This document shows positions 1,288 through 63,320 of a DNA stretch of 64,000 bases, in pieces. Numbering within the stretch: the first letter of the stretch is position 1; each line of letters begins with the position of its first letter. Source of the stretch: a virus (Duplodnaviria > Heunggongvirae > Uroviricota > Caudoviricetes). The notes beneath the pieces were generated by a model, which saw only the letters and a list, made by a program, of their open reading frames with translations, was not told the origin of the DNA and did no database searches. Location: positions 52,315 to 116,314 of the IMG/VR virus record IMGVR_UViG_3300047472_000248. One strand, written 5' to 3'. A program made the translations under genes and the position numbers.

Positions 1288-1291
1288 CGCG

Positions 1292-1318
1292 GTCAGCATT
1301 GACTGACTTTCTATAATG
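1292..1318 (+). promoter_or_regulatory. degenerate palindrome GTCAGCATTGACTGACT + TATAAT
   Basis: followed by a small hairpin and ATTTATGGGGG before ATG 1358. Confidence 0.5.
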
Positions 1319-1357
1319 CTGGTGTAAGTCCCTGCGGGGCACATTTATGGGGGCGCA

Positions 1358-1873
1358 ATGGCCAAGTTCATGATCGACTCGTGCTACCTACTGCACGAAG
1401 GCGGGACGAAGTTCTACCAATGCTTTCGGTTCACGGCAGAGGGCGTTGGCAAGTGGCCATTCCCACCAGGGGCCAGCAAGAGGGCGATCTCCCTCAACCA
1501 TTGGGGCCCGCATACGGGCGCGCCAGGCCCGCGGCGTCCGGTCGAAGGCGGCCAGACGAAGCTACTGGATAACGACCAGTATCTCGGCCAGCGTTCCATC
1601 AAGATGGGCCGTGGTTACGAGCTGCTCCAGCTGTCCCACGAGAACACTGAGTCCTTTACGAGCCCCAATGCGCAGCTGAAGTTCCAGCAGGAGCTGACCA
1701 AGCTGGTCGGCGCCAAGACGCGCGACGAGATCCTGATCAAGCTCGGGATCGGCGTCGAGGCTACGCCCATCGCAGCCGAGGACGCAGCCCTAGCGCCGAC
1801 GCCCAGTGCCCACAGTTCGCCCATCGCAACAGAGCCCGATTCGACGAGCGACCCTCGTTGGGGCTCCTGGTAA
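1358..1873 (+). CDS. hypothetical protein
   Basis: 171-aa ORF downstream of a TATAAT site at 1313; co-oriented in operon. Confidence 0.4.
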   Translation: MAKFMIDSCYLLHEGGTKFYQCFRFTAEGVGKWPFPPGASKRAISLNHWGPHTGAPGPRRPVEGGQTKLLDNDQYLGQRSIKMGRGYELLQLSHENTESFTSPNAQLKFQQELTKLVGAKTRDEILIKLGIGVEATPIAAEDAALAPTPSAHSSPIATEPDSTSDPRWGSW

Positions 1874-1882
1874 GGGGGACCT

Positions 1883-2392
1883 ATGACCGCCGAGATTCTG
1901 AACATCGACGCATCGGCCGACGGCCGGCGCAACGCTTACACGTTCCGCTGCACGCCCATCGGCCAGCAGATGCACTACGCGGCCTGCCTGCAGCGCGTGG
2001 ATGCCACGCAGCGCCCCGACGCACCCTCCGACTGGGCCGGGTGCAGGAAGGCCTGTGAGCAGGGTCTATGCCCTGCCAAGGGCATGCGCGAGGAAGAGCT
2101 GCTCAAGGGCAAGTCGGTCTACTTCCGGGCGCGCCAGGCACTGCAAGAGGCAGCCGAGAAAGCACGCACCTGGGTCGACACCTGGAAGAACTCGAAGCCC
2201 GCGGGCAAGCGCGAGAAGGGCTCGGTGCTGGACGCGATGGCATCGATCGACACCAGCTACGCGAAGGCCATCAGCGGGCTGACGACCGCGCCGGTGCTCG
2301 CACCCATCGAGGTCCGCCCCGAAGAGACGCCGCTGCAGGCGGCCCGTCGAAAGCTCGCCGAGCGCAAGGCAGCGGCCACAACGAATCATTGA
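1883..2392 (+). CDS. hypothetical protein
   Basis: 169-aa ORF; RBS-like GGGGGAC before ATG; tight spacing to neighbours. Confidence 0.4.
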   Translation: MTAEILNIDASADGRRNAYTFRCTPIGQQMHYAACLQRVDATQRPDAPSDWAGCRKACEQGLCPAKGMREEELLKGKSVYFRARQALQEAAEKARTWVDTWKNSKPAGKREKGSVLDAMASIDTSYAKAISGLTTAPVLAPIEVRPEETPLQAARRKLAERKAAATTNH

Positions 2393-2402
2393 AGGAGAAG
2401 AC

Positions 2403-3782
2403 ATGCTGATCGTGCGCGACGCCGCGAGCGTCTACAGGGCCATCGAGAAGATCGCGGCCACCCCGGGGAAGAACGACAAGATTGCCATGGTGAAGGAAGC
2501 CATGGGACAGTCGAAGCTGTTCGTGCGCGCCATCAAGGCCGCGCTCGACCCCTTCATCACCTACGGGATCGCCGCGCTGCCCGCGCGCCCCGATGCAGCC
2601 CCGGGCGCGAACACGCTCGACGAGGAGACCTGGTGGGAGATGCTCGAGCAGCTCGCCACCCGCAAGCTGTCGGGCAACGCAGCCCGCGACGCGGTGGCGC
2701 GCGCCCTCGCGTTTCTCACGCCCGAGAGTGGCGAGCTGCTGCGCCGGATCATCAAGAAGGACCTGCGCGCCGGCTTCAGCGAAGAGACCGTCAATAAGGC
2801 GGTCAAGGGCACGCTCCCGGCCTTCCCCTACATGCGCTGCAGCCTGCCGAAGGACAGCTACATCGAGAAGTGGAACTGGGGCGCTGGCATCGTCGTGCAG
2901 GAGAAGGCAGACGGTGAGTTTGCCAACATCAATCACGAGGTCGGGGGCATTGTGACGATCACGTCGCGCCAGGGCCGACCCATGGATCTCGGCCAGCTGG
3001 GCGCCCTCGTCGATGACATTCTCAACGCCCTGCCTGCCGGCACGCAAACGCATGGCGAGCTCGTCGTCTACCGCGATGGCCAGCCGTTGCCGCGGCAGGA
3101 GTCGAACGGGATCATGAACAGCATCGCGCAAGGCGGCGATCGCCCGCTGGGTCACGAGATTCGCTACCTGGCCTGGGATCAGATTCCCCTGTCAGCCGTG
3201 GTCGCCAAGGGTAAGCATGAAGTGCCGTATCGCGAGCGCCTAAAAGCACTGCTGGTCGGCATCACGGGATACAAGGGCGGCACGTCGACGGTGCGCCTGG
3301 TGCCGACGAAGATCGTTCACTCGAAGGCCGAAGCGCTGGCAATCTACTCGACCTACCTGTCGCAGGGCAAGGAAGGCGCCGTCATCAAGCACCCGCTCGC
3401 CATCTGGAAGGACGGCACCAGCAAGGACCAAGTGAAGTTCAAGCTGGAGGTCGTCGTCGATCTCCGGGTGAAGGGCTTCGTCGAGGGCACGGGCAAATAC
3501 GCCGGCATGCTCGGTGCGTTCGAGATGGAGAGTGAGTGCGGCCTGCTCAAGACGAACGTCAACGGCCGCGGCGACGACATGCGGGCCGCGGTCTGGGCGG
3601 ACAGGGCGGACTGGCTCGACAGCGTGCTTGCGGTGAGGGCCAACTCGATCATGCCGCCCAGGAAGGAGGGCGACCCGCACTCGTTGTTCCTGCCGGTGAT
3701 GGTCGAGCGCCGGACCGACAAGAGCGAAGCGGACACCCTGCAGCGCGTGCGCGAGCAGTTCGAGGCGGCGGTGGCAGCATGA
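2403..3782 (+). CDS. ATP-dependent DNA ligase
   Basis: motif I KADGEFANINHE (KxDG); motif IV-like EGAVIK; OB-fold region; RBS GAAGGAGAAGAC upstream. Confidence 0.8.
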   Translation: MLIVRDAASVYRAIEKIAATPGKNDKIAMVKEAMGQSKLFVRAIKAALDPFITYGIAALPARPDAAPGANTLDEETWWEMLEQLATRKLSGNAARDAVARALAFLTPESGELLRRIIKKDLRAGFSEETVNKAVKGTLPAFPYMRCSLPKDSYIEKWNWGAGIVVQEKADGEFANINHEVGGIVTITSRQGRPMDLGQLGALVDDILNALPAGTQTHGELVVYRDGQPLPRQESNGIMNSIAQGGDRPLGHEIRYLAWDQIPLSAVVAKGKHEVPYRERLKALLVGITGYKGGTSTVRLVPTKIVHSKAEALAIYSTYLSQGKEGAVIKHPLAIWKDGTSKDQVKFKLEVVVDLRVKGFVEGTGKYAGMLGAFEMESECGLLKTNVNGRGDDMRAAVWADRADWLDSVLAVRANSIMPPRKEGDPHSLFLPVMVERRTDKSEADTLQRVREQFEAAVAA

Positions 3783-4024
3783 ACGGCATCGGGATCGCCT
3801 TGGCGTGTGTTGCCATGGTGGGGCTGACTGTCTCCTGCACGGTTTCTATCGCGCGCTACGACGCACGCACGAACGCAGAGGCAGAAGCTTCATGGCAAAC
3901 CTGGGAGACGGCTCGCGCAGCCGAAGGTTGCAAAGTCACGAGCTTCATCTCCACGGGGCGCGGCTACTTGCGTGAGGTCTACACCTGCCCTGATGGCAGA
4001 GTGGTTCTGGGGAGATGGAAATGA
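3779..4024 (+). CDS. small membrane protein
   Basis: ATGA overlap with ligase stop; hydrophobic N-terminus IGIALACVAMVGLTV. Confidence 0.4.
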   Translation: MNGIGIALACVAMVGLTVSCTVSIARYDARTNAEAEASWQTWETARAAEGCKVTSFISTGRGYLREVYTCPDGRVVLGRWK

Positions 4025-5061: not shown

Positions 5062-5234
5062 ACGTCAACGACCTCCGCAAGCACCACCCCTTTCCCTGGC
5101 GCTCGTCCGAAGGCCCGGATGCCGGCCAGATTCGCGTGCTCGATGCGCAGGGTAACGAGATCCCCATCCTAGTCATGACCGACTTCATCGTCGGCATCAC
5201 CACCAAGCTGGCAGAGCACCCGGTCCGGCCATAG
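5058..5234 (+). CDS. hypothetical small protein (58 aa)
   Basis: GTG start overlapping upstream TGA; below the 60-aa cutoff of the supplied ORF track. Confidence 0.25.
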   Translation: MNVNDLRKHHPFPWRSSEGPDAGQIRVLDAQGNEIPILVMTDFIVGITTKLAEHPVRP

Positions 5235-5247: not shown

Positions 5248-5272
5248 TATAATCGGTAAGTCACCACTGACT
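5248..5272 (+). promoter_or_regulatory. TATAAT + GTAAGTCACCACTGACT
   Basis: CTCTATAATCGGTAAGTCACCACTGACTGACC. Confidence 0.5.
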
Positions 5273-6354: not shown

Positions 6355-6360
6355 TATAAT
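6355..6360 (+). promoter_or_regulatory. TATAAT -10-like hexamer
   Basis: CCCTATAATGGG 20 nt before ATG 6381. Confidence 0.4.
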
Positions 6361-6380: not shown

Positions 6381-7040
6381 ATGCAGCTTCTCAACATCGG
6401 CCGGGTGAGGGATCACCTCGGCCAATCTCCGCTTGTGGACGACCCGCTGTGGGCTTGCGAGTCGCACAAGGTCCAGTCGCGTGACCTGACGATGTTCGTC
6501 GCCCGCTGGGCGGCAAGGGAGCAGGGTCCCATCGCGAACACCGCGATCGGTGTGCTGCAGGCAGAGGCGATCAAAGACATCGTGCGCGGCCGTCTCGGCG
6601 GCACGCTGGCCTGGCTCGACTACCGCATCGACCAGCCGCGCTTCATGGCAGATGAACTGGTCGACGGCCTGGCGCGGCTCCCGCTGCCGCGCCGCGGCGC
6701 CTGCCTATTCGCCCTGGAGGCCAAGATGGGCCTGCAAGACGTCGCCGACCTGACCTGGAAGGACGTGCCGCATCGGACCGAGATCCCGCAGACGGGTCTG
6801 TGCCAGGAGGTGCTGCGCGCCCAGCCGCGGCACATCCGCCTCAGCTACGTGTTCTGGGAGGAGGTCGGCCCGCGCGTCGCCGCGCCGCTGCTCGAGCTGG
6901 ACTACAGCGTCAAGATGGCCTTCGCGTGCGCCTGGCACGAGCTGCAGGAGAACTACGACGCGATGCTGATGGTCGACCGCCAGGCCGACGCTGTGAGCCT
7001 GCTCGAGATCGCAGGCGAGATCCGCCGCGGCGAACTCTAG
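6381..7040 (+). CDS. hypothetical protein
   Basis: 219 aa; RBS GGAGGG; follows TATAAT at 6355. Confidence 0.5.
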   Translation: MQLLNIGRVRDHLGQSPLVDDPLWACESHKVQSRDLTMFVARWAAREQGPIANTAIGVLQAEAIKDIVRGRLGGTLAWLDYRIDQPRFMADELVDGLARLPLPRRGACLFALEAKMGLQDVADLTWKDVPHRTEIPQTGLCQEVLRAQPRHIRLSYVFWEEVGPRVAAPLLELDYSVKMAFACAWHELQENYDAMLMVDRQADAVSLLEIAGEIRRGEL

Positions 7041-7970: not shown

Positions 7971-8771
7971 CTATGCCCGCGACACCATAAGCAGGTCGGT
8001 GCGCGGGTCGATCGCGGCACTCGAGAAGAACCCGGTCTCCACCAGGCGGCCGGCCGCCAGCTTCAGCTTGTAGCGGAACTTGCGCAGCTCGGCGATCTCG
8101 CTGCCGCACAGCTCGTGCAGCTTGGCCACGCTGTAGGGATACGGCTCCGCGTGGGTGATGTAGAAGCTGTGCAGCCACTTGGCCAGGGGCGACAGCTTCA
8201 GCCGCATCTTCCAGTCCAGGCGCGAGTAGGTCGCCGGCCCGAACAGGCTGATGATCTCGCGCTCGAGAAGGATCTCCCACTGCCGCAGGGTCGCCCCGCC
8301 GGCATCCTCCTTCCAGCGAAACGACCGGATCAGCGACCCGGTGTAGTTCTGCCGCGCGCCGGCGCCAGGTAGTTCAACGGTGACGGCCACCGCCGACGCC
8401 TTCAGCCGGTCGAGACAGTCGACCAGGCGCCGGTAGCTCGCGCTGTTCTTCGTCCAGCCCAGCTCGGTGAGCATCGAGTAGGCGGTGAACTGCACGTGCG
8501 TGCCCAGCGGGTGCATCCGGGCGATGTGCAGGATCTGCAGGAAGACATCCTCGTCGTCCTGCCGCAGCTCTTCGCCGGTGTAGGTGATCTCGATCCCACG
8601 CAGCGCCGCGATCGGCCGGCGCTTCAGGTTGTCCCGGGCCCCTGCCCTGACGTTGGCGACATTGAAGAGCGCCGAGCGGGCGAAGCAGTTGGGCAGGCCC
8701 CGAAGGTCGGCCGGCCAGATCGGCAGCTGGTCAGGCGAGACCGTCACGGTTGAACTACGTCGGGCGGGCAT
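7971..8771 (-). CDS. TrfA-like plasmid replication initiator
   Basis: 266 aa; LFNVANVR...LRGIEITYTGEEL...DEDVFLQILHIA resembles the RK2 TrfA family; start abuts the iteron array. Confidence 0.55.
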   Translation of the reverse strand: MPARRSSTVTVSPDQLPIWPADLRGLPNCFARSALFNVANVRAGARDNLKRRPIAALRGIEITYTGEELRQDDEDVFLQILHIARMHPLGTHVQFTAYSMLTELGWTKNSASYRRLVDCLDRLKASAVAVTVELPGAGARQNYTGSLIRSFRWKEDAGGATLRQWEILLEREIISLFGPATYSRLDWKMRLKLSPLAKWLHSFYITHAEPYPYSVAKLHELCGSEIAELRKFRYKLKLAAGRLVETGFFSSAAIDPRTDLLMVSRA

Positions 8772-8824
8772 TCGGGCTCCGGCAGCTGGATGCGCGCGAG
8801 TTTGCCGTCGGGCGCCCTGCCCTG

Positions 8825-8951
8825 TCCATAGCGCAACGGTGACGCTGCATAGTGCAAGGGTGGCGTCTCATAGTCGGAGGGTGACACCAGCGTCCTCTCC
8901 ATAGTCGAAGTGTGACGCCCTCCCCGTTCGAGCCATAGTCGAAGCGTGACG
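8825..8951. repeat. five direct iterons CATAGTCGAAGNGTGACGCC (candidate oriV)
   Basis: copies at ~8825, 8846, 8867, 8898, 8932; 21-22 bp period for the first three; immediately upstream of the TrfA-like gene. Confidence 0.7.
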
Positions 8952-8999
8952 CCCGGCCTGGGCGAACCACCCTTCTAAAAGCTGTCTTTTCTCTGGAGT

Positions 9000-9008
9000 T
9001 ATCCACAG
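9000..9008. promoter_or_regulatory. DnaA box TTATCCACA
   Basis: perfect consensus 9-mer between the iterons and an AT-rich patch (CCATTTATCAG). Confidence 0.5.
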
Positions 9009-9168
9009 GGGCGTAGTCCAACGGTGGCAAAGTTGTCCCGGTTATAGAGGGATTACCATTTATCAGCGGGTCACGGTTGCACTAGGCCGCCGTCACCGTT
9101 GCGCCGTCGCTCGCGCGAAACGGTCACCCTTGCGCCGTGCCTGCATTCTGCCGGGCGTCACGCTTGAA

Positions 9169-9507
9169 CTAGCCCCCTGCCCTCACCCGCTCCATCTTCT
9201 CGGCGATCGCCTCGAGGATGAACCGGTGCATCGACATCGACGGCAGCGTGTGCACCAGGGCCATCAGCTCGAAGTGATCCGTCTCGGGCATCTTCAGGTT
9301 CACCTGCTTGAGCACCCGGGGATTGAGGCCATTTGCAGGCGCTGCAGGCTTCTGTCGCTGGGTGGGTGGCGGGGCTGGCACTGGCGGGGGCTGTGGGGCC
9401 GCGGCGGGCTCTTCCTGGGGCTGGTCGGCCGTCAGGTTGGTCTTCGCCTGCTCGACGAACTCTTCTGGCGTGCGCGGCGGTTTGATTCGGCGCAGCGTCC
9501 CCGTCAT
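9169..9507 (-). CDS. ParG-like ribbon-helix-helix partition / centromere-binding protein
   Basis: 112 aa; disordered Pro/Ala-rich N-terminus and C-terminal RHH-like segment; translationally coupled to parA-like gene. Confidence 0.45.
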   Translation of the reverse strand: MTGTLRRIKPPRTPEEFVEQAKTNLTADQPQEEPAAAPQPPPVPAPPPTQRQKPAAPANGLNPRVLKQVNLKMPETDHFELMALVHTLPSMSMHRFILEAIAEKMERVRAGG

Positions 9508-10169: not shown

Positions 10170-10410
10170 TCCTATGCTAGGGTATCAAAGCAGATGCCAG
10201 TGCCCCATGGGCTAGGCGATCGCAGGCGATGCCAGCATAGGACAGCGTGGTGTAGGAGAGGATAGCACCCCCTTCCCTGCCCTCGGCTAGGGTTTGCGAT
10301 GCTAGGCTATGCCACCAGACCGATGCATAGCATATGAGAGGGGAGGGTAGGCGACCCTATGCGATGAGCCCGCATGCCACCATAGGCTAGGCTATCGCAG
10401 GCTATGCGAG
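10170..10410. repeat. centromere-like array of short CTAGG / TATGC / GCATAG repeats (candidate parC and par promoter)
   Basis: about 12 degenerate hexamer copies in alternating orientation directly upstream of parA. Confidence 0.5.
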
Positions 10411-10467: not shown

Positions 10468-10977
10468 CTAAGCTGCCTTGCGATGCGACGTGCCCAGCGT
10501 GCGCGCCACTGCAGCATGTGCTGCCTTGCGCTGATCGCGGAGCTTTCGCAGAACAGGGATGAGCGCCTCGACAAAGGCAGGCTCCGCGGCCAGGTCGATG
10601 TCCATGTCCTGCAGCTCGTGGTTCACCAGACGCAGCAGGTTCGCATCCTTCTGCGAGACCATCCGGGTCGTCATGATTTCCTCCAAGGTCTTGTAAGTCT
10701 CGGGGGTGTATTCCTTCATGACCAGGCGAAAGAGATAGACGGGATCGCCGTCGATGGCCTTGCACAGCGCGGCAATCTTGTTGATCGGCAGCTTCATCTC
10801 GCCGGTCTCGATCATCGTCATGATGTTGCCGGTGGCATAGCCGAGCGTGGACGCGACTTCCCTGCGCGTCTTACCGCTGGCATCCATCAGTCGCGCGATG
10901 TAGTCGGAGACGGCGCCCTTGTATCCCCGCTCGCGCTCCTTGACTACCTCCGTCGATCCCTTCTTTTGCGTGGCCAT
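10468..10977 (-). CDS. HTH (XRE-family) transcriptional regulator, candidate repressor
   Basis: helix-turn-helix REVASTLGYATGNIMTMIETGEMKLPINKIAAL; divergent from early operon. Confidence 0.6.
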   Translation of the reverse strand: MATQKKGSTEVVKERERGYKGAVSDYIARLMDASGKTRREVASTLGYATGNIMTMIETGEMKLPINKIAALCKAIDGDPVYLFRLVMKEYTPETYKTLEEIMTTRMVSQKDANLLRLVNHELQDMDIDLAAEPAFVEALIPVLRKLRDQRKAAHAAVARTLGTSHRKAA

Positions 10978-10984: not shown

Positions 10985-11268
10985 TTCCTTCCTTCAATAA
11001 AGAGGATAAATGACCGCTTGGCGGCCCTGCTTCCCTGTGGGTAGCGAGGGCATTATATGAGAGTCAGCGCTGAGTGATCAGCTCTAGACGTGCCAGATAT
11101 CGGGATTTACCTCTAGAAACTAGGGGGTCGCTTCTATCTGATCAGTCTCCCCTGACTGAGGGTGCACGTCAGACGACACCTACATTCTCCCTATAATGCA
11201 GGGGCTTCGAGACACCCCGTAACCATAGACTGCCAAGCAGTCAGCCCTGACTTAGGAGACATCGACAG
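10985..11268. promoter_or_regulatory. divergent switch region
   Basis: two CTCTAGA repeats; degenerate palindrome AGTCTCCCCTGACT at 11144; TATAAT at 11192; perfect palindrome AGTCAGCCCTGACT at 11239 overlapping RBS TAGGAGA. Confidence 0.55.
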
Positions 11269-11451
11269 ATGGCCGGCCAACTAAACGGAAAAGAAGTCAC
11301 GAGTGACGAGTTTGTTCGAGTCATGCAGTCAGCTGAGTCTGTAACACGCCTCGATATGGGGCTCGGCGACATCTACATCCTGAGGTTCAAAGCTGGCGAT
11401 CGTGCCGCGATCGCGATGGACGGGCGCTACGCCCTGGTCGACATCGGCTGA
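11269..11451 (+). CDS. first gene of rightward operon (60 aa)
   Basis: ATG 12 nt after RBS TAGGAGA; promoter-proximal position. Confidence 0.35.
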   Translation: MAGQLNGKEVTSDEFVRVMQSAESVTRLDMGLGDIYILRFKAGDRAAIAMDGRYALVDIG

Positions 11452-11536
11452 CGCATCGGCTGCTGTTGCAGCCCCGCCCCGAATCCGAGGGGCAATTTTT
11501 AGAGTTCGTTCATTGCAGCGAACGAAGGGGAGCGCG

Positions 11537-13762: not shown

Positions 13763-13789
13763 GATTTTTCTCGCTCGCCCGTTGCGATA

Positions 13790-13811
13790 AGTCAGCCCTG
13801 ACTGTATGATT
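13790..13811 (+). promoter_or_regulatory. AGTCAGCCCTGACT + TGTATGAT
   Basis: between the CobT-like and CobS-like genes. Confidence 0.5.
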
Positions 13812-13877: not shown

Positions 13878-15086
13878 ATGAGCGAAGTCGCCACCGTCGA
13901 AGAACTCGACACCCGGATCAGCTGCGAAATCTGTGGTGCCAAGTGCCACGGCATTCAGACGCACCTGAAGGATGATCACGCCGACTGGACATTGGCACGC
14001 TACGAGAAGGAGTTCCCCGGCAAGCCGCTGCTCTCCGAGCTGGCCAAGATGAAACTCGCCGAGCACCAGGCCGCAAAGAAGGCTGCCGCAAACCCGGCGT
14101 CGTCATCAGTCAGCACTGACTCGAAGCAGCGCGCTGAGACGAAGTTCTTCCATGAAGTCTTCGGGCTGGGCATGGTGCCGGCGGCGCTCAGCACCCCGTC
14201 GAAGGACGGGAAAAAGAAGGCACGGCCGATCCCGATCACGACGCTGATCAACACGCCGGAATCGCAGCCGATGGTGCCGGCGATCGACCCGAACTACGTC
14301 TTCAACCTCGACGTCCTCAAGAGCGTGATGCTTGCCGCCGAGATGGGCGTCGCGGCCTATCTCTGGGGCCACGCCGGCACGGGGAAGACCTCCCTGTTCG
14401 AGCAGCTGTTCGCGCGGACCAACCGCCCGATGATCCGGGTGCAGCACACCGCCAACATGGAAGAGTCGCACATCGTCGGCCAGTGGGTGCTGCGTGAGGG
14501 CGAGACGGTGTTCGAACTCGGCCCGCTGCCGCTGGCCATGATCAATGGGTGGGTCTACCTCGCCGACGAATACGACTTCGGCCGCCCCGAGGTGCTGTCG
14601 GTCTACCAGGCCGTGCTCGAGGGCAAGGCGCTGGTGATCAAGGAAGCTGACGCGAAGAACCGCGTCATCAAGCCGCACCCGAACTTCCGCTTCGTCGCGA
14701 CGGGCAACACCAACGGCACGGGCGACGAGTCGGGCCTGTATTCGGGCACGAACATCCAGAACGCCGCCAACTACGAGCGCTTCGCCATCGTCGAGCGCAT
14801 GCCCTACATGGAGCCCGAGCTGGAGGCACGCCTCGTGTCGCAGCAGGCCGCCATCGCGATTCTCGACGCGCGCAAGCTGGTCGACTACGCCGGGCGCATC
14901 CGCACCGAGTTCGACAACGGCAAGGTGACCTCGCCGATCTCCCCGCGCTCGCTGATCTACGCCGGGAAGATCGGGATGATCCGCGCCAACTACCGCATCG
15001 GCCTCGAGAAGGCCTACATCAACCGCCTGTCCTCGGTCGACCGAGAGACGGCATTGCAATTCGCCCAGCGCGTTTTCGGAGCTTGA
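13878..15086 (+). CDS. AAA+ ATPase, CobS/MoxR-like
   Basis: Walker A GHAGTGKTS, Walker B-like VYLADEYD; N-terminal Cys/His cluster CEICGAKCHGIQTH. Confidence 0.65.
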   Translation: MSEVATVEELDTRISCEICGAKCHGIQTHLKDDHADWTLARYEKEFPGKPLLSELAKMKLAEHQAAKKAAANPASSSVSTDSKQRAETKFFHEVFGLGMVPAALSTPSKDGKKKARPIPITTLINTPESQPMVPAIDPNYVFNLDVLKSVMLAAEMGVAAYLWGHAGTGKTSLFEQLFARTNRPMIRVQHTANMEESHIVGQWVLREGETVFELGPLPLAMINGWVYLADEYDFGRPEVLSVYQAVLEGKALVIKEADAKNRVIKPHPNFRFVATGNTNGTGDESGLYSGTNIQNAANYERFAIVERMPYMEPELEARLVSQQAAIAILDARKLVDYAGRIRTEFDNGKVTSPISPRSLIYAGKIGMIRANYRIGLEKAYINRLSSVDRETALQFAQRVFGA

Positions 15087-16329: not shown

Positions 16330-16575
16330 ATGTCAGAAGTCACGATCACCATGCCCAAGGAACTCACGGGCGAAATGCTGCGCGCGGTGCGTGAGCATCC
16401 ACTCACGAAGGTCGAAGACCGCGACGAGATGAACCTGCGCATCGGCTGGCTGATCTGCGCCTGGGACGTGCTCGCGGAGCACCGCCGGCCGCCACCCGTG
16501 CCGTATCGACCGCCACAGCCGACCCCACTGGGGGCGATTCCCAACGATCCGAGAGTGAAGTGGTCCTGGAAATGA
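16330..16575 (+). CDS. hypothetical protein
   Basis: 81 aa; RBS AGAGACTGCCCCT; ATGA overlap with dnaE start. Confidence 0.45.
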   Translation: MSEVTITMPKELTGEMLRAVREHPLTKVEDRDEMNLRIGWLICAWDVLAEHRRPPPVPYRPPQPTPLGAIPNDPRVKWSWK

Positions 16576-19500
16576 ACCCCCTTCAGATCGCCCCATCGAT
16601 TCGCTCCGACTTCTCGATCGGCGAATCCTCTGCGCAGATCCCGAAGCTGGTCGACCGCGCGAAGGAGCTGGGCTACAAGGCGCTCGCGCTCGTGGACACC
16701 ATGAGCGTCTCGTCGATGCCCAAGTTCGCCAGCGCGTGCAAGAAGGCCGAGATCAAGCCCATCGTTGGCTGCACCGTCCGGGTCGTCAACGATCCCGCCG
16801 AGCGGGTGAAGGACCGCGAGAATGGCGGCTACCGCCTGAAGGTCTACGTCAAGACCGAGCGGGGCCTGCAGTCGCTCTACCGGTTGCTGACGACGGCGCT
16901 CCAGCCCGACCACTTCTACTATCACAGCCGCTGCTCGCTCGACGAGGTCCTGCAGCTCGAGGACGTGATCGTCACCACGGGCGACATGCACAACCTCTGG
17001 CACCGGCAGGACGCGGCCGCGATCGACAGCCACCTGATTCACCGCTTTGGGAACGACTACGGGGTGGAGCTGGTCGCGCTGAAGACGCCACTCTTCGACC
17101 GCCTGAACCGCACCGCCTGGGAAGTGGCACAGTCTCAAAGCCGCAACATCATCGTCACCCGGCCGGTCTTCTACCTCACGCCGGAGGATGCCGACAGCAC
17201 CGACGTGCTGCGGGCGATCTCGTCCAACACGTCGGTCGACAGCATCTTCCTCCCGCAGCCCTACGTGCGCGACATGGCGCTGCTCGACCCCAAGGACTAC
17301 CTGAAGCACCTGCAGGCGCTCGACGAGACGCTGGGCGCCAAGGTGGCAAGCCGCGGGCTGCACCACGTCAAGGGCATCGCCGACAACTGCACCTACGAAT
17401 TCAAGAAGCTCCCACCCTCCATGCCCAAGATGGCAGAGGACGAGTTCGTCACTCTCTGCGGCATCGTGCGCGACGGCTGGACCGAACGCTTCTCGAAGAC
17501 CGTCTGGGGCCACGCGCCGGCGCCCGCCGAGCTGCAGGTCTACAAGGACCGCCTCAGCTTCGAGCTGAGCGTCCTGAAGAAGATGGGCTTCAGCGGCTAC
17601 TTCCTGCTGGTGCACGACATCGTCCAGTGGTCGAAGGACAACGGCATCCGCGTGGGCCCCGGGCGGGGCTCCGCCGGCGGCAGTCTGGTCGCCTACCTCA
17701 TGGGGATCACTGACCTCGACCCCGTGCGCTTCGACCTCCTGTTCGAGCGCTTCATCAATCCCGACCGGATCGACTTGCCCGACGCCGACCTCGACTTCAT
17801 GTCCGGGCGCCGGCACGAGGTGATCGAATACATCACCAACAAGTGGGGCAAGGATCACGTCGCGGGCATCGTCAACTTCTCCACCCTGGGCGCTGCGTCT
17901 GCGCTGCGCGACAGCGCGCGCCTGCACGGCCTGAAGCCCTACGAGTATTCGTGCTCGAAGCAGATGGAGAAGGAGCACGGGGTCGCGCTCAGCCTCGAGA
18001 AGTCCGCCGAGCTGGTGCCCGACATCGAGAAATTCAAGCTGGACCGCCCGGTGATATGGAACCACGCGGTGCGCATCGAGGGCGCCAACCGCAACCTCTC
18101 GCAGCACGCCGCGGGCGTGGTCGTCGCCGGCGAGCCGATCGTCAACCGGGCGGTGGTCTCCACCCAGCCGGGGCACGCGGTCATCCAGTGGGACAAGAGC
18201 CAGGTCGAAGAGTTCGGCCTGATCAAGATGGACATCTTGGGCCTGACGACGCTCGACGTGATCGATGCGATCCTCACCTACGTGAAGGAGCGCCATCACA
18301 AGACGATCGACACGCTGCGGCTGCCGCTCGACGACGACAAGACCCTGAAGGCATTCGCCAAGGGCGACACCGTGGGGGTGTTCCAGTTCACGGGGTCGGG
18401 CATGCGCAAGCTGCTCAAAGAGATGGCGATGGGCGGGCCGCTGACGTTCGACGATGCGTGCGCTGCCACCGCGCTGTTCCGGCCGGGCCCGCTCGACGCC
18501 GGCCTGTGTGACCGCTACGTTCAGGTGAAGCAGGGAGCCGCGACGCCCTACTACGAGCACCCCGCGCTCGAGGAGTGCCTCAGCGACACCTTCGGCGTGA
18601 TCGTCTACCAGGAGCAGGTCATGAAGATCTGCCGGGTGCTCTGCGGGTTTACCCCGGGTGAAGCCGACGGTGTGCGCAAGGCCATCGGGAAGAAAGACCC
18701 GGTGAAGATGGCCGAATACGGGGAGCAGTTCGTCGCCGGCGCCGTCAAGGCAGGCATGGACAGCTTCCGCGCCGAGGCGCTTTGGGAGCAGATTCTGGGC
18801 TTCGCGGGCTACGCCTTCAACAAGTCGCACAGCTACGCCTACACGCTGCTCAGCTACACCACCATGTGGCTGAAGGTGAACTACCCGCTGGAGTTCTTCG
18901 CGGGCTCGCTGTCGGTGGTCGACGACTCGGACGCCCAGGCGATCCTGATCGCCGACGCGCAGAGCAGGGGCATCCGTGTGCTGCCGCCCGACGTGAACTA
19001 CAGCAGCGCGCGCATCGAGATCAAGGGCGAGGACGAACTCTACGCGCCGCTGCAGGCCGTCAAGGGCATCAGCAGCAACGTCGCCGCGTCGATCCTGAAG
19101 CTGCGCGAGGCCACCTCGGAGCACGTCCACGTCGGGCCGCCCGTGGTCAGAACGAAATCCCCGCTGACGATGACGGACTTCGATCCGGCGCGCCAGAAGG
19201 AGATTTTGGGGCGGGTCAAGGTCAACGCCGCGCACCGCGCTGCGCTCGATAAGGTGGGCGGGTTCTTCTCGATCACCGGTGGCGTGCCCCCGACGCACCC
19301 TGACCGCTTGCGCGACCGACTGGCACTCATGCCCGGGTTCACCGTCGAGACGGTGAAGGCCGATCGGAAGCTCACCGTCGAGCACCTGGCCAAGATCAAG
19401 ATCACCCGCCTGGTGGAAGAGGCGCGGACCTGCGAGGGCTGCTCGTTCAAGGGCAAGACGCACCCCGTGGTCCGCATGGGCGACGCGCCGAAGTTCATGC

Positions 19501-19961
19501 TGGTCTTCGACACCCCGAGCTACCAGGACGACCGGGCGGGCAAACTGCTCGCAGAGGGGAGCGACGAGCGCCCGGGCAACTACGAGGTCGTGCGCGCCGC
19601 GCTGAAGGGCATTGGGCTTCGGGTCGGCGACGGCTACTACACCGCGCTGGTGAAGGCCGCGAAGAACAAGGGCCAGAAGGAGCTGACGAACGAGCAGATC
19701 AACGGGTGCAGCAAGTTCCTGATGGAGGAGATTGCGATCCTGAAGCCGCCCGTCATCGTCGCCATGGGGAGCAATGCGGTGCGCTTCTTCGCGCCGGGTA
19801 TCAAGGGCTCGCCGGCTGACCTCGCCGGCAAGGCCATCTATCGCAGCGATCTGGACGCAACCGTCATCTTCGGCATCAACCCGGCGTCGCTGTTCTTCGA
19901 CCCGAGCAAAGAGGCGCTGATCGTTGCGGCATTCGACAAACTGGGCGAGCTTTTGAGCTGA
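16572..19961 (+). CDS. dnaE: DNA polymerase III alpha (DnaE-type) with C-terminal family-4-UDG-like domain
   Basis: PHP domain; [17 protein letters not shown]...[26 protein letters not shown]...DLDF polymerase core; C-terminal CEGCSF...FDTPS...[21 protein letters not shown]...GINPAS parallels UDG family 4 with GEAPG replaced. Confidence 0.85.
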   Translation: [1129 protein letters not shown]

Positions 19962-19968: not shown

Positions 19969-19987
19969 AGTCAGCCCTGACTATAAT
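19969..19987 (+). promoter_or_regulatory. GTAAGTCAGCCCTGACTATAAT
   Basis: canonical unit after dnaE stop. Confidence 0.6.
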
Positions 19988-25398: not shown

Positions 25399-25870
25399 CA
25401 CCAAGATCGGCGAGGCCAAGCCCGACCCCTCGGGGCTGTGGACGTCCCGGGTGGTCCGCCGCGATCGCAAGTTCTACGGCGAGATTCGCAGCTACAAGCG
25501 GGTCAAGCTGGCCGTCTACTGGGCGCACCGCCGCACCGACGAGGAGTTCAGGGAGCTGGAGGCCTGGGCGGTCGATGTCGACACGATCGCCGCCTTGAAG
25601 TCCTACGCGGTGACGCACGTCGGCATCCTGGTCGAAGACGGCCGCCGCTACCTCGCGCCAATCAGTCTCTTCGGCCCCGCGGGCAAGGACGTGGGCGTGC
25701 AGGTGCTCGACTACTCCAAAGCGAAGGGCAGGGCACCCGGGGCGAAGGGTAAGTTCGGCGCGCTGCAGTATTACGTGCCGATCGCGCTGTTCAAGGCGCA
25801 CATCCCACCCATCGAGACGCGCGAAGAGACGCTCTTGGAGCGCATGCGTATTTCTGCTCGAAAGAGGTAG
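25391..25870 (+). CDS. hypothetical protein
   Basis: 159 aa. Confidence 0.45.
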   Translation: MADTKIGEAKPDPSGLWTSRVVRRDRKFYGEIRSYKRVKLAVYWAHRRTDEEFRELEAWAVDVDTIAALKSYAVTHVGILVEDGRRYLAPISLFGPAGKDVGVQVLDYSKAKGRAPGAKGKFGALQYYVPIALFKAHIPPIETREETLLERMRISARKR

Positions 25871-25897
25871 TCAGTCCTGACTTAGTCTACCTATAAT
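25869..25897 (+). promoter_or_regulatory. AGTCAGTCCTGACT + 9 nt + TATAAT
   Basis: GTAGTCAGTCCTGACTTAGTCTACCTATAATG. Confidence 0.55.
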
Positions 25898-26990: not shown

Positions 26991-27394
26991 TCGCCGCCAC
27001 CGCGGCACTCTGCCTCGCGCTCAACGTGTATCACGAGAGTCGCGGGCAACTGATCCCGGGCCAATACGCCGTCGCGCTCGTGACCATGAACCGTGCCAAG
27101 GTGCTGGGGAGGGTCTGCGCGACGGTGTTCGCACCGAAGCAGTTCAGCTGGGCCAACCACGGGGTTCACCGCACCCGTGCCGGCTGGGTCATCCCGACGG
27201 CCCTACAGCCCCGTGACGAGGGTGCCTGGCAGCTCGCGCAGACCATCGCGAACCGCACCCTGGGCGGCCGCATGCCCGACTTCACCTGGGGCGCCACCTT
27301 CTACCACACGACCGCCGTCTCCCCGGCCTGGCGGCATGCAATGGTGGACATCAAGACGATCGGCGACCACCGTTTTTATGCGGTGCCGCAGTAA
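26987..27394 (+). CDS. SleB-like cell-wall hydrolase (Hydrolase_2 family)
   Basis: NVYHESRGQ...AVALVTMNRAK...FAPKQFSW...ANRTLGG pattern; TTG start. Confidence 0.55.
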   Translation: MIAATAALCLALNVYHESRGQLIPGQYAVALVTMNRAKVLGRVCATVFAPKQFSWANHGVHRTRAGWVIPTALQPRDEGAWQLAQTIANRTLGGRMPDFTWGATFYHTTAVSPAWRHAMVDIKTIGDHRFYAVPQ

Positions 27395-27420
27395 GTCAGG
27401 GCTGACTCGCTACCTATAAT
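27394..27420 (+). promoter_or_regulatory. GTAAGTCAGGGCTGACT + 7 nt + TATAAT
   Basis: after the SleB-like gene stop. Confidence 0.55.
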
Positions 27421-27428: not shown

Positions 27429-27454
27429 GCGGGGCGACTGCCCCGCGCTTTTAT
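27429..27454 (+). terminator. promoter-proximal terminator-like hairpin
   Basis: GCGGGGC-GACT-GCCCCGC then GCTTTTAT; 9 nt after TATAAT, 13 nt before ATG 27467. Confidence 0.5.
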
Positions 27455-27466
27455 CGGGGAGGGCTT

Positions 27467-34849: not shown

Positions 34850-34874
34850 TATAATGAGTAAGTCAGCCCTGACT
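34850..34874 (+). promoter_or_regulatory. TATAAT followed by AGTCAGCCCTGACT palindrome
   Basis: CACTATAATGAGTAAGTCAGCCCTGACTG. Confidence 0.55.
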
Positions 34875-39036: not shown

Positions 39037-39055
39037 AGTCAGCCCTGACTATAAT
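39037..39055 (+). promoter_or_regulatory. AGTCAGCCCTGACTATAAT palindrome/-10 unit
   Basis: GATCAGTCAGCCCTGACTATAATGGG directly after the kinase stop. Confidence 0.6.
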
Positions 39056-39076
39056 GGGCACAGCTAGAACGACACC

Positions 39077-39105
39077 GAGACACCCGAAAAGGTGTCTCCT
39101 TTTTA
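39077..39105 (+). terminator. promoter-proximal intrinsic terminator / attenuator
   Basis: GAGACACC-CGAAAA-GGTGTCTC 8-bp stem then CTTTTTAT; followed by mini-ORF ATG GTC GCT GAC GGT TAG (39105-39122). Confidence 0.6.
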
Positions 39106-39120
39106 TGGTCGCTGACGGTT

Positions 39121-39134
39121 AGTCAGCCCTGACT
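39121..39134. promoter_or_regulatory. AGTCAGCCCTGACT palindrome abutting RBS TAGGAG
   Basis: same 20-mer AGTCAGCCCTGACTTAGGAG as at 11239. Confidence 0.55.
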
Positions 39135-39144: not shown

Positions 39145-39555
39145 ATGGACGCAGTGCCGAGCCCACGTGAAGAACTCGAACGCAAGGCGGTCGAGACACT
39201 CGAGGACATCGAGTGGCGCCGGCAGCAGGGCACCTTGAGCGGCGATGCCGCGGCCGCTGCAGCGCGGGCGATCTACCACGTGACCAGCGGGCTCGTGGAC
39301 TACTCGGTGACCGAGCTGGTGCAGGCGGTCGAAGCCCAGGCAAGCCCGATCATGAAGCGCCACTTCCTCGAACGCGCCACCGGCACCTCGGTCGTCATCG
39401 GCTGGAACCGCACGCGCCAGGTCTTCGGGATTGTGAAGCGCCAGGTCGGGCAAGACCCCAAGGTCAACCGCATCGAGTGCGGCGAAGAACCCCCGCCCGA
39501 GAAGATCGCCAAGGTCGTCAAGGCCCTGACCGCCAAGGGCTACATCGAAATCTGA
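39145..39555 (+). CDS. hypothetical protein
   Basis: 136 aa; RBS TAGGAG. Confidence 0.5.
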   Translation: MDAVPSPREELERKAVETLEDIEWRRQQGTLSGDAAAAAARAIYHVTSGLVDYSVTELVQAVEAQASPIMKRHFLERATGTSVVIGWNRTRQVFGIVKRQVGQDPKVNRIECGEEPPPEKIAKVVKALTAKGYIEI

Positions 39556-47015: not shown

Positions 47016-47170
47016 CGAGCCACAAAGAGATGCTGGCCTGGCACCGCGCCACCATTCGCAAGACGCTGAAGGAGCTGGCCAAGCTCTGCCCGGGCGCGTT
47101 CGATGCGGAGGGTAACCCGAAGCCCGCGACAGCCTACCCACGTCCAAAGCGCACAGTCAATACTGACTGA
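47012..47170 (+). CDS. hypothetical small protein
   Basis: 52 aa; ATGA overlap. Confidence 0.3.
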   Translation: MTSHKEMLAWHRATIRKTLKELAKLCPGAFDAEGNPKPATAYPRPKRTVNTD

Positions 47171-51408: not shown

Positions 51409-51434
51409 TATAATGCGCGCAGTCAGTCCTGACT
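51409..51434 (+). promoter_or_regulatory. TATAAT followed by AGTCAGTCCTGACT palindrome
   Basis: CCTATAATGCGCGCAGTCAGTCCTGACTTG. Confidence 0.5.
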
Positions 51435-51516: not shown

Positions 51517-51529
51517 AGTCAGGACTGAC
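51517..51529. promoter_or_regulatory. AGTCAGGACTGAC palindrome near start of 51540 gene
   Basis: preceded by TGTAACAA; 10 nt before ATG. Confidence 0.4.
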
Positions 51530-51539
51530 GGAACCATTT

Positions 51540-52231: not shown

Positions 52232-52495
52232 ATGAGCTTCAAGGCACAACTTTCGGCGCTGCTTGTCGCTGCGTCGCTGATCGAACTCGACGACATGGAC
52301 GCCGGCCTGATGGAGGCCGAAACCGAAACGGTCAGCGTCATCATCCGCGAGCACGAGCGCGAGGTGTTCTTCCTCGACCAGGAAGTGGAGGTCGATGAAG
52401 GTGGTGTCGCGCTCGTTGCCGACGTCGACGGGATCGAGCATCGGCTCTTCCTGGCCAAGGTGCGCGAGATCCGGGCATCGGACATCAGCGCATAG
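52232..52495 (+). CDS. hypothetical acidic protein
   Basis: 87 aa. Confidence 0.4.
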   Translation: MSFKAQLSALLVAASLIELDDMDAGLMEAETETVSVIIREHEREVFFLDQEVEVDEGGVALVADVDGIEHRLFLAKVREIRASDISA

Positions 52496-53986: not shown

Positions 53987-54005
53987 AGTCAGCTCTGACT
54001 ATCAT
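53987..54005 (+). promoter_or_regulatory. GTAAGTCAGCTCTGACTATCAT palindrome/-10-like unit
   Basis: TATCAT variant of TATAAT. Confidence 0.5.
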
Positions 54006-55596: not shown

Positions 55597-55615
55597 AGTC
55601 AGCACTGACTATACG
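55597..55615 (+). promoter_or_regulatory. AGTCAGCACTGACTATACG palindrome/-10-like unit
   Basis: TATACG variant. Confidence 0.45.
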
Positions 55616-59038: not shown

Positions 59039-59416
59039 ATGAGTGATGCCAACCGCCGCACCCGCCTTCTGGAGCTCTTCAACGGCCCTCGGTTCAACGG
59101 TGACCGATCGGCGCTGATCGCCGAGACCGGGCTCACCAAAGGCAGGGTCGCGCAGTTCTTCAATCCGGCACAGCCGTTCGGCGAGCGCGCAGCTGCCAAC
59201 CTGGCAGAGAGGCTGGGCCTGCCCGCGAGCTACTTCGATGCAGAGTCTGGCCCGTATCAGCGTGCGATCGAATGGATCGCCTCCAGCGACGTGCGGGTCG
59301 CGGTGCCGCTTGTTGCGCATGCGTTTCAGGTGCCTCACACGAAGGTCCTGCGAGACGTTCGTGAAGCCCGTGCGAGCCTGACGAAGCTCGCTGCTGCCGC
59401 ACCCGGGGCGCGATAG
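59039..59416 (+). CDS. Cro/CI-type HTH DNA-binding protein
   Basis: LLELFNG...ALIAETGLTKGRVAQFFN...LAERLGLPASYFD helix-turn-helix. Confidence 0.55.
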   Translation: MSDANRRTRLLELFNGPRFNGDRSALIAETGLTKGRVAQFFNPAQPFGERAAANLAERLGLPASYFDAESGPYQRAIEWIASSDVRVAVPLVAHAFQVPHTKVLRDVREARASLTKLAAAAPGAR

Positions 59417-60000: not shown

Positions 60001-60004
60001 ATTC

Positions 60005-61820: not shown

Positions 61821-61840
61821 GACAGTCCCACCTGTCGAAC
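61821..61840 (+). promoter_or_regulatory. class-2 motif variant GACAGTCCCACCTGTCGAAC
   Basis: palindromic CGACAG...CTGTCG arms; 29 nt before ATG 61868. Confidence 0.4.
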
Positions 61841-61867
61841 ACAACCACCCACCAGGGGAAGACAACC

Positions 61868-62247: not shown

Positions 62248-62551
62248 ACGCCTGCAGCAACGCCCACACAGCGCCCGGGGTTCGGCATCGCCGCCCTGGG
62301 CGTTTTCATGTTCGGCTGACTGCCTGTAAGCAGGGCCTAGGACGCGGCGCTGTCCTGGTGCCTTGATATTCGGCGAGGGTCCTTTAAGGCGGCGTTTGGA
62401 CCAGGCGGCCCGCCCTGGGCTCCGCCCCCGCGCTGCCAAATGCGAACGGGCCTCAACAACCGCGGTCCTTCTCACGCCCCGCGTGCCAAGTCAAGCGAAT
62501 TCGAATACCCGACCGCCTTATTCAAGATACGGGTTTGCCCTAGGTGCGATC

Positions 62552-62578
62552 AGTCAGAACTGACTTACATTATCTATA
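62552..62578 (+). promoter_or_regulatory. AGTCAGAACTGACT palindrome + AT-rich -10-like TACATTATCTATAC
   Basis: in a 380-bp non-coding spacer before the low-GC3 gene. Confidence 0.5.
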
Positions 62579-62631
62579 CCGCATCAATTGATGACGGTGT
62601 TTATGAAACCTAACCCAAAGGGGATTTTGAA

Positions 62632-63255
62632 ATGAACGCTTCGACCACCACCTACGCCCGCGGTATCGCCCTCTTGAACGCGCATCCCGCCCGTGCAAGC
62701 GCTGATATTAGCGCGGTTCTGAACCCGCGCAGTGCATTCGGTTTCGTCGAGAAGACTGCGCAAGCATTCGACCGTTTCGGTATCGATGCAGACATCGTCT
62801 TTTCTCTCCCGCAGAAGCAAGTCAAGCGCGCGGTTCAGATGGTCAATGCAGTCGTGTCGGGCACGTATGACAAAATCGACGCGACTACCGCGTGCGGGCT
62901 GTATGCCCTGCGTCTCTCCCCCGATAACGCCCTCGAATACGATGCGCTTCACCTGCTCATCTCTGGGGTTGTGCGCAAAGAAGATTCGCTGATCGATCAG
63001 AAGGGGGTTTCGCGCTCGATTCTGCGTCGATTGTTCGCCCGGGTAGGGGCTAACACCGTCTCGACGCAGAAGTCGCGCAGCTTCGGGAATAACGGGTTCT
63101 GTGACGCCCTGGGCATGACGGGTGCAACGCACGGTAAGGTGAACCGCATGGTCGACCTGAACCCCGCGCACCCCCTTACTGTCGCATTCTTCGAAATGGT
63201 CGACAAAGCAAATCCCGCGCAAATCGACGCGATCGGTGGGGGCAAGGGAGAGTAA
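62632..63255 (+). CDS. hypothetical protein, atypical codon usage
   Basis: 207 aa; many T/A-ending codons unlike the rest of the window; RBS AAAGGGGAT. Confidence 0.5.
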   Translation: MNASTTTYARGIALLNAHPARASADISAVLNPRSAFGFVEKTAQAFDRFGIDADIVFSLPQKQVKRAVQMVNAVVSGTYDKIDATTACGLYALRLSPDNALEYDALHLLISGVVRKEDSLIDQKGVSRSILRRLFARVGANTVSTQKSRSFGNNGFCDALGMTGATHGKVNRMVDLNPAHPLTVAFFEMVDKANPAQIDAIGGGKGE

Positions 63256-63260
63256 GGGCA

Positions 63261-63278
63261 GAGGGGCGTTAACGCGCC
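63261..63278 (+). other. GC hairpin GGGGCG-TTAACG-CGCCCC after the gene
   Basis: contains palindrome GCGTTAACGC; weak U-tract. Confidence 0.3.
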
Positions 63279-63288
63279 CCTTCTGCTA

Positions 63289-63302
63289 AGTCACCCCTGA
63301 CT
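63289..63302. promoter_or_regulatory. AGTCACCCCTGACT palindrome
   Basis: CTAAGTCACCCCTGACTTAC before 63321 gene. Confidence 0.45.
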
Positions 63303-63320
63303 TACTACACCGAGACCACC

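Follow-up and report, generated by a model that had tools for sequence, protein, structure and literature searches.

Copies of an AGTCAG-NN-CTGACT palindrome as candidate operators of an XRE-family repressor in an SSU5/pHCM2-type phage-plasmid

The 64-kb stretch of viral DNA analyzed here (IMG/VR record IMGVR_UViG_3300047472_000248, positions 52,315 to 116,314; below, the window) contains many copies of the palindrome AGTCAGNNCTGACT (AGTCAG-NN-CTGACT). The palindrome is genuine, strongly non-random and evolutionarily conserved. From comparison of sequences we consider it probable that the copies are the operator set of the element's own lysogeny repressor, an XRE-family protein encoded on the minus strand at 10468-10977. 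The element itself is a new and distant member of the SSU5/pHCM2 type of phage-plasmid, of which the window is a part.

The palindrome and its copies

The null model for motif counts was a set of 100 dinucleotide-preserving shuffles of the window. The palindrome had 16 exact matches against 0.00 expected, and when up to two mismatches were allowed there were 24 matches against 2.31 expected, the maximum in any shuffle being 7. Hence, the recurrence of the palindrome claimed in an initial annotation of this DNA was borne out. Among all palindromes of the 6+6 form with gaps of 0-8, AGTCAG-NN-CTGACT alone was over-represented, with 16 copies versus no more than two for any other. About 20 of the 24 copies are intergenic in a window where intergenic DNA makes up about 15% (binomial P about 4e-13). 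Of the copies listed in the initial annotation, those at about 1292 (here 1291), 5259, 11144, 51517 and 63289 are imperfect, with one or two mismatches, and the exact copies at 1115 and 14108 plus the near-copies at 11062, 47155 and 5171 had been overlooked. The statement that the copies always lie between genes was wrong because those at 1115 and 14108 are within primase-like and CobS-like open reading frames (ORFs), in stretches that align with homologues.

Over the 24 copies the core positions are near-invariant and the two central bases are free. The bases flanking the core are biased symmetrically: T at -2 (15 of 24 copies) is mirrored by A at +15 (12 of 24), A or C at -1 by T or G at +14, and G at -3 by C at +16. 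The full element is a 20-bp dyad, GTM-AGTCAG-NN-CTGACT-KAC, having 9-bp arms with centres about 11 bp apart. As the flanks are symmetric on both sides, the GTA prefix reported in the initial annotation is real and is the left arm of the dyad. In the related Cupriavidus plasmid every site fits AGTCA-N4-TGACT with at most one mismatch (32 sites versus 1.7 expected, 28 of them intergenic). A hairpin of variable loop, suggested when half-sites of the Cupriavidus plasmid and of phage SSU5 seemed to be separated by 2, 6 or 10 nt, was rejected, since a register-by-register scan fits N4 throughout; the other apparent spacings arise because the flanks are 4-nt periodic (AGTC-AGTC-AG), and half-site spacing is fixed. 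Dyad symmetry together with fixed half-site spacing suits a dimeric DNA-binding protein.

The copies and the features that accompany them are listed below. Here and throughout, promoters and start sites are sequence predictions, with the -10 hexamer taken as -12 to -7.

1115-1128: exact copy AGTCAGGGCTGACT, within the primase-like ORF 277-1287, which aligns with its Cupriavidus homologue over residues 2-335
1291-1304: 2-mismatch copy GGTCAGCATTGACT, 4 nt past the primase stop codon; TATAAT at 1312-1317 (offset +21)
5171-5184: 2-mismatch match AGTCATGACCGACT, weak and probably due to chance (shuffled sequence gives 2.3 matches of this quality); located 88 bp upstream of 5259
5259-5272: 1-mismatch copy, 5 nt downstream of TATAAT 5248-5253, covering about -1 to +14; ATG at 5292
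10468-10977, minus strand: XRE-family helix-turn-helix (HTH) gene, 169 residues, Pfam HTH_31, candidate repressor
11052-11057, minus strand: TATAAT, predicted -10 of the XRE promoter
11062-11075: 1-mismatch copy, 4 nt upstream of the XRE -10 (about -30 to -17), predicted autoregulatory operator
11144-11157: 2-mismatch copy, about 48 bp upstream of TATAAT 11192
11192-11197, plus strand: TATAAT of the control region's rightward promoter, lying between two copies that are 95 bp apart
11239-11252: exact copy, abutting the ribosome binding site (RBS) TAGGAG of ORF 11269-11451
13790-13803: exact copy, CobT-CobS intergenic, filling the 17-bp spacer between TTGCGA 13782-13787 and TATGAT 13805-13810
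14108-14121: exact copy, within the CobS/MoxR-like ORF 13878-15086
19969-19987, plus strand: exact copy fused to TATAAT (CTGAC-TATAAT), past the DnaE stop codon
21013-21031, plus strand: exact copy fused to TATAAT
25869-25897, plus strand: exact copy, 9 nt, then TATAAT (offset +23)
27394-27420, plus strand: exact copy, 7 nt, then TATAAT (offset +21); begins on the final base of the upstream stop codon
32416-32429: exact copy between genes, with a weak -10-like TAGCAT alone, 4 nt downstream
34850-34874, plus strand: TATAAT, 5 nt, then exact copy (at 34861) covering about -1 to +14
39037-39055, plus strand: exact copy fused to TATAAT
39121-39134: exact copy, abutting RBS TAGGAG of ORF 39145-39555, 84 bp from 39037
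47155-47168: 1-mismatch copy upstream of ATG 47201, no -10 near
51409-51434, plus strand: TATAAT, 6 nt, then exact copy (at 51421)
51517-51530: 1-mismatch copy, 9 nt upstream of ATG 51540 and 96 bp from 51421
53987-54005, plus strand: exact copy fused to TATCAT
55597-55610: exact copy, intergenic, no clear -10
62552-62571, plus strand: exact copy then TACATT (CTGACT-TACATT)
63289-63302: 1-mismatch copy, intergenic, past a GC-rich hairpin

The element, its relatives and the candidate repressor

Assignment to the SSU5/pHCM2 type was made on Pfam content, DnaE identities and gene order. The window is 65% GC and nearly all genes are on the plus strand, except for a minus strand block at about 7.0-11.0 kb. 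Pfam matches were obtained for a DnaG-like primase, an ATP-dependent ligase, TrfA, a small ParA, the XRE/HTH_31 protein, a CobT-like VWA protein, a CobS/MoxR ATPase and a DnaE with a C-terminal UDG domain. The DnaE protein shares 53% identity with its counterpart on a Cupriavidus metallidurans plasmid of 107 kb, 47% with the DnaE of Acinetobacter plasmids of about 110 kb, and 36-42% with the DnaE of Rhizobium phages, phage SSU5 and the phage-plasmid Cyrano. Gene order agrees with that of the Cupriavidus plasmid and SSU5. No phage record was near-identical to the window, an exact match to the DnaE protein was sought and not found, and scans of the GTDB species genomes with CobT and with a 20-base form of the motif gave no match. 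The syntenic core (primase, ligase, XRE, CobT, CobS and DnaE-UDG) is present together with a plasmid replicon and ParA, whereas the structural genes are outside the window.

Several features of this backbone can be recorded. The DnaE-type polymerase (16560-19961) has its UDG (uracil-DNA glycosylase) domain at residues 986-1124. Some annotated Acinetobacter plasmids encode UDG as a gene of its own, and there a NUMOD4-domain gene interrupts the region. In the gap that separates the TrfA gene from the ParA operon (8743-9176) lie copies of about 16 bp of TAGTNCAACGGTGACG in both orientations, which are unrelated to the palindrome and are probably the TrfA iterons (oriV). Upstream of ParA (10170-10410) are direct repeats of 25-31 bp resembling CTAGGCGATCGCAGGCGATGC, probably a partition site or par operator. 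Neither of these two maintenance genes, TrfA and ParA, has the palindrome upstream, the repeats there being different sequences.

The expectation that related genomes would share the palindrome held, as it is the dominant palindrome in Cupriavidus, in Acinetobacter and in about 45 metagenomic contigs. Phage-plasmids of Acinetobacter baumannii (about 39% GC) have the same AGTCAG half-site, and SSU5, Cyrano and Salmonella pSAN1-1735 have GGTAAG/AGTAAG-NN-CTTACC/CTTACT in place of the AGTCAG type. In the CobT-CobS intergenic region the palindrome is found in nine of nine elements of 41-65% GC (the window, five IMG/VR contigs, Cupriavidus, SSU5 and Cyrano), where it is the sole invariant block of the alignment. 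In four related loci (L117, L119, L120 and L057) the palindrome abuts a TTGnnn -35 followed by a 17-bp spacer and TATCAT, TAGAAT or TATAGT. In the CobT-CobS intergenic region of three others (L132, L130 and L129) it is nested within a longer imperfect dyad, CAGGATAAGTCA-N4-TGACTTgcaTATCCTG, that includes the -35.

The enterobacterial relatives carry a second palindrome family, AAACAA-N-TTGTTT, located between the -10 and the RBS of early genes. SSU5 has 11 copies of it, and the early genes concerned include ParA and CobT. A counterpart was sought in the intergenic DNA of the window and none was found; the AGTCAG copies at 11239 and 39121 occupy the equivalent RBS-adjacent place.

Two HTH proteins encoded in the window had been put forward as the dimeric repressor for which the palindrome might serve as operator. 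The second, encoded at 59039-59416, had no Pfam or PHROG match and thus its nature as a DNA-binding protein is unsupported. The first, encoded at 10468-10977, is favoured on comparative evidence: its family assignment, the copies in its control region, its orthology to a Cyrano gene and its co-occurrence with the sites. The protein is a transcriptional regulator by PHROG and has the Pfam HTH_31 domain. Its gene is divergent from the CobT operon and the shared region of 290 bp holds three copies of the palindrome. Homologues at the same position are found in Cupriavidus, Acinetobacter, Salmonella, Cyrano and many IMG/VR contigs, and homologues are encoded by 917 PLSDB plasmids of Klebsiella, Escherichia, Acinetobacter, Enterobacter, Yersinia and Salmonella. 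The gene is the positional orthologue of CYRAN_45 of the Escherichia coli phage-plasmid Cyrano, which is annotated as a putative (master) repressor and belongs to the small set of genes that the lysogen expresses (PMC9928086). The XRE promoter bears the version of the palindrome proper to its lineage in Salmonella and E. coli Cyrano (GGTAAG-NN-CTTACC in both) and in Acinetobacter.

We also examined 45 IMG/VR loci that were retrieved through XRE homology rather than by DNA motif, using a search pattern in which the recognition helix was fixed. The loci contained 113 exact AGTCA-N4-TGACT sites in 769 kb, against an estimated chance value of about 0.7, and 42 of the 45 had at least one site. The recognition helix (T/S/A)-M-(I/F/L)-K accompanies AGTCA sites, and the enterobacterial LSLIK helix and the LSTIL helix of locus L121 accompany palindromes of the AGTAA/GGTAA type (TAAGTA-N6-TACTTA in L121).

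Three other proteins were considered and set aside. The ORF in the Cro position (11269-11451) has no recognizable domain and its positional counterparts barely align, and the 112-residue ORF downstream of ParA has no Pfam, PHROG or ParB match. SSU5_121, although annotated as a transcriptional repressor, is unrelated to the XRE family.

Promoter context and competing explanations

That the palindrome is usually fused to TATAAT, as the initial annotation had it, proved too strong. Literal fusion is seen for three copies (19969, 21013 and 39037), whereas weaker -10-like hexamers are fused at 53987 and 62552 and stand one base off at 13790. The window contains 12 TATAAT hexamers, 11 on the plus strand (the gene strand) and one on the minus strand before the XRE gene. 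Ten of these are within 25 bp of a copy, that at 11192 is between the copies at 11144 and 11239, and that at 6355 alone lacks a copy. The context TnnC-TATAAT (T at -16, C at -13) was found for 11 of the 12 hexamers, and at the fused sites it is furnished by the TGAC that ends the palindrome. The -35 hexamers of the associated promoters are poor, with no more than four of six matches. Altogether, a predicted -10 lies no more than about 40 bp away from 15 of the 24 copies.

Relative to these promoters the palindrome occupies -25 to -12 at 19969, 21013 and 39037 and, with the weaker -10 hexamers, at 53987 and 62552 (the copy at 13790 is one base further upstream). It occupies -30 to -17 at the minus strand XRE promoter (11062), -33 to -20 at 1291 and 27394, -35 to -22 at 25869, and about -1 to +14 at 5259, 34861 and 51421. 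All of these positions, from -35 to +14, are within the footprint of RNA polymerase. The -10 offsets in the window are therefore several (+13, +18, +21, +23, -11 and -12) and relatives add +36 and -16. At both 11239 and 39121 the same 20-mer stands directly against the Shine-Dalgarno sequence, and a promoter-proximal copy lies 84-95 bp away. In the family as a whole (142 distinct sites from the window and its relatives) there are two main classes, palindromes fused to the -10 (21 sites) and palindromes that abut the -35 with centres at about -41.5 (23 sites), plus minor classes at +21 and downstream of the -10. An apparent class at -3 was discarded, being the fused +13 class read on the reverse strand.

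At 6355 the TATAAT stands in the usual TnnC context without a palindrome, and the maintenance genes TrfA and ParA have none upstream; the palindrome thus seems dispensable for a promoter. Given positions within the polymerase footprint, the lack of a fixed geometry and this apparent dispensability, the palindrome would behave as an operator rather than as a positive promoter element. The 6355-6360 hexamer precedes a gene (6381-7040, 219 residues, no Pfam match) that is a candidate for expression in the plasmid (lysogenic) state. The -10 consensus reported for rhizobial sigma-70 promoters is CTATAT. The C-TATAAT form recalls it and, with weak nucleotide matches to Rhizobium phages, only hints at an alphaproteobacterial host.

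Copies also come in pairs 82-96 bp apart, or about 8-9 helical turns (11062/11144/11239, 39037/39121, 51421/51517 and 5171/5259), and promoter 11192 is between two copies, as in the gal operon. An oligomeric repressor could loop the DNA between such pairs.

The mechanism we propose is as follows. The palindrome would be a double-stranded DNA operator of about 20 bp, with half-site centres about 11 bp (one helical turn) apart, to which a dimer or higher oligomer of the XRE repressor would bind. The copies appear to be built into, or to lie beside, the cores of strong but -35-poor TnnC-TATAAT promoters of replication and lytic operons, and during plasmid carriage the bound repressor would exclude RNA polymerase or block it just past the start. 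The copy at the -10 region of the XRE gene itself would provide negative autoregulation. Copies that lack promoters, being intragenic or RBS-adjacent at 82-96 bp from a promoter copy, might act as roadblocks or as anchors of DNA loops. We infer XRE binding, repression by that binding, looping and the transcription start sites from the arrangements described above.

Several points weigh against this proposal. The lytic phage SSU5 has no XRE homologue, even at E = 10, and has kept about 20 sites. This is the pattern that a virulent derivative that had lost its repressor would show, but a different binder would explain it too. The gene of the binder could also lie outside the 64-kb window. The result with the 45 loci tests co-occurrence rather than covariation, since the search pattern fixed the recognition helix, and the correlation of helix with half-site, drawn from two or three independent lineages and confounded by phylogeny, is suggestive only. 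Moreover, nine of the 24 copies have no -10-like element near, and the centre at about -41.5 found in many relatives is classically the position of an activator.

The likeliest rival is a positive promoter element, at which a phage activator or polymerase-associated factor would replace the missing -35 contact; the sites would then mark a temporal class of phage promoters and not repressed ones. P1 Lpa acts in this manner at late promoters, and class II activators act at -41.5. Perfect -10 hexamers coupled to poor -35 sequences, the two recurrent geometries of the family, and the presence of sites in replication modules (in Cupriavidus also in structural-gene modules) would all fit. However, a single protein cannot activate alike from -18.5, -41.5, +6 and RBS-adjacent positions, and at -25 to -12 it would clash with sigma. 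The hexamer at 6355 has the same upstream context free of any palindrome, two exact copies are intragenic, and in four lineages the promoter of the repressor gene itself has a copy downstream of or beside its -10. A P1-type Lpa box would lie at one fixed distance upstream of the -10, whereas the offsets found here vary, and the annotated relatives showed no gene of sigma-like or Lpa-like type. We consider an activator site unlikely.

A compound scheme deserves mention. Terminator-like hairpins with a GC stem and T-run lie between a palindrome promoter and the gene served at 27429-27456, 39076-39107 and 11476-11503 (the scan was noisy and only clean cases of this kind were kept). The first begins about 8 nt past the predicted start of the 27415 promoter, the second is between the copies at 39037 and 39121, and the third is between the 60-residue ORF 11269-11451 and CobT. 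This placement suggests antitermination or attenuation control of early operons. The palindrome sequence can double as the context of a -10 (TGAC-TATAAT), can supply the first base of a -35 or can form the 5' end of a transcript, and lambda CI activates at PRM from about -41.5. Hence, one regulator might be wired in three registers, activating from about -41.5 (for instance at CobS-type promoters of the relatives), repressing from the spacer or +1, and looping the pairs 82-96 bp apart, to give with the leader terminators a timing device for all of lytic growth in SSU5-type phage-plasmids. Our estimate for this scheme is as low as that for the activator.

The initial annotation had also raised an RNA hairpin, in which a stem-loop of the transcript would be a processing site, a 5'-end stabilizer or, for copies in contact with the Shine-Dalgarno sequence, the target of an RNA-binding protein that controls translation. 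At 5259, 34861 and 51421 the palindrome begins at about the predicted start and would give a 5'-terminal hairpin, the copies at 11239 and 39121 abut an RBS, the stem is lengthened (partly by G-T pairs) in relatives L117, L120 and L132, and both mismatches of copy 1291 are G-T. However, the stem of 6 bp with a loop of 2 nt folds only as 5 bp with a 4-nt loop (-3.2 to -4.3 kcal/mol), and in neither RBS context is the hairpin the minimum-energy fold. The imperfect copies have 11 broken pairs, nine of which are neither wobble-compatible nor compensated, whereas the stem sequence itself, beyond its pairing, is conserved over genomes of 39% to 65% GC. Flank symmetry on both sides is expected of double-stranded DNA recognition, no Rfam match was obtained at the gathering threshold, and in the fused and +21/+23 classes, as for most copies, the palindrome is upstream of the predicted start of the accompanying promoter. 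The hairpin reading is thus weak, and we think it very unlikely.

Centromere-like or silencing sites of a ParB/KorB-type partition protein were also considered. RK2, a TrfA plasmid, has twelve OB sites and phage-plasmid N15 has dispersed SopB sites; the KorB operators of RK2 are palindromes of 13 bp that are spread across promoters, some of them immediately upstream of a -35. The element likewise has promoter-scattered palindromes, a TrfA replicon and a small ParA, and its Cupriavidus relative encodes ParB-family proteins. Against this, the par repeats (10170-10410) and iterons (8743-9176) differ in sequence from the palindrome and hold no copy of it, the copies cluster at the XRE gene and not at the par locus, the 112-residue protein encoded downstream of ParA matches neither ParB nor any Pfam or PHROG family, and the window has no ParB gene. 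We think this explanation very unlikely as well. Finally, intrinsic terminators were dismissed: the stem is of 5-6 bp, no T-run follows any copy, and the terminator-like hairpins of the window differ in sequence.

Relation to known repressor systems

The initial annotation could not match the motif to a described regulon. This agrees with the searchable literature (subscription papers on plasmid prophages aside), which holds no description of the motif or of the operator of an SSU5-type repressor. Nor did we find a description of how SSU5-type elements are silenced in the plasmid state, the nearest being the putative repressor annotation in Cyrano (PMC9928086). If repression by the XRE protein is correct, the whole repressed regulon could be read from the sequence of any family member, immunity groups could be predicted (AGTCAG-type versus GGTAAG/AGTAAG-type), and the switch could be tested by gel shifts and by reporters in E. 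coli LF82/Cyrano, Acinetobacter baumannii and Cupriavidus metallidurans. The sites would also supply a set of strong, compact and repressible promoters. SSU5/pHCM2-type phage-plasmids are a widespread, large and clinically relevant family, and phage-plasmids in general are reported to carry antibiotic-resistance genes (PMC9600943).

Among proteins of solved structure, the HTH domain is closest in sequence to Rco of the Bacillus plasmid pLS20 (PDB 8bny; E = 6.8e-5, profile residues 16-83). Rco is a tetrameric plasmid master repressor of divergent promoters, including its own, that loops operators about 75 bp apart (PMC9986798). The pairs found here, 82-96 bp apart, might be looped in a like manner. 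However, the sequence similarity is weak and does not extend beyond the HTH domain, and Rco recognizes direct repeats of CAGTGAAA rather than a palindrome.

Among systems known for dispersed operators, P1 has a single C1 immunity repressor that is autoregulated and acts in a plasmid-prophage of about 100 kb through many operators scattered over lytic and replication promoters. The proposed arrangement shares with it dispersed, promoter-overlapping operators and one autoregulated repressor in a plasmid-prophage. It differs in that the P1 operators, 17 bp long, lack symmetry and are bound by C1 as a monomer, a protein unrelated to XRE, whereas the present site is symmetric, 14-20 bp long, and has a small XRE protein as its candidate binder. 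Also, P1 late promoters are not directly controlled by C1, whereas the Cupriavidus relative has the palindrome between structural genes as well. The stoperators of cluster A mycobacteriophages (L5 gp71) number 20-30 per genome, are of 13-14 bp, and are bound by the repressor to silence the prophage. They resemble the present copies in number, in their placement in short intergenic gaps and in that many lack a promoter, but stoperators are asymmetric and in one orientation, whereas here there is a palindrome with symmetric flanks and a predicted -10 within about 40 bp of most copies (15 of 24).

The conserved inverted repeats of the Streptomyces phage phiC31 are bound by the phage repressor. 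They and the 17-bp palindromes of cluster O mycobacteriophages are alike in being multiple palindromes beside promoters across a temperate phage genome, but the sequences and proteins are others, the hosts are Gram-positive and of high GC, and there is no plasmid replicon. The KorA/KorB circuit of RK2 is similar in having a TrfA replicon and 12-13 bp palindromes at many promoters in a global repression circuit, whereas no homologue of KorA, KorB or ParB was found in the window and its par and iteron repeats are separate sequences. The motif resembles these systems in function and belongs to none of them (P1 C1, stoperators, phiC31 repeats or KorA/KorB), because it is palindromic (versus P1 and the stoperators), has an XRE candidate binder and matches none of them in sequence. 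A dispersed repressor regulon is a well-known kind of system, and the window appears to contain the gene of a cognate repressor with a site at that gene's own promoter.

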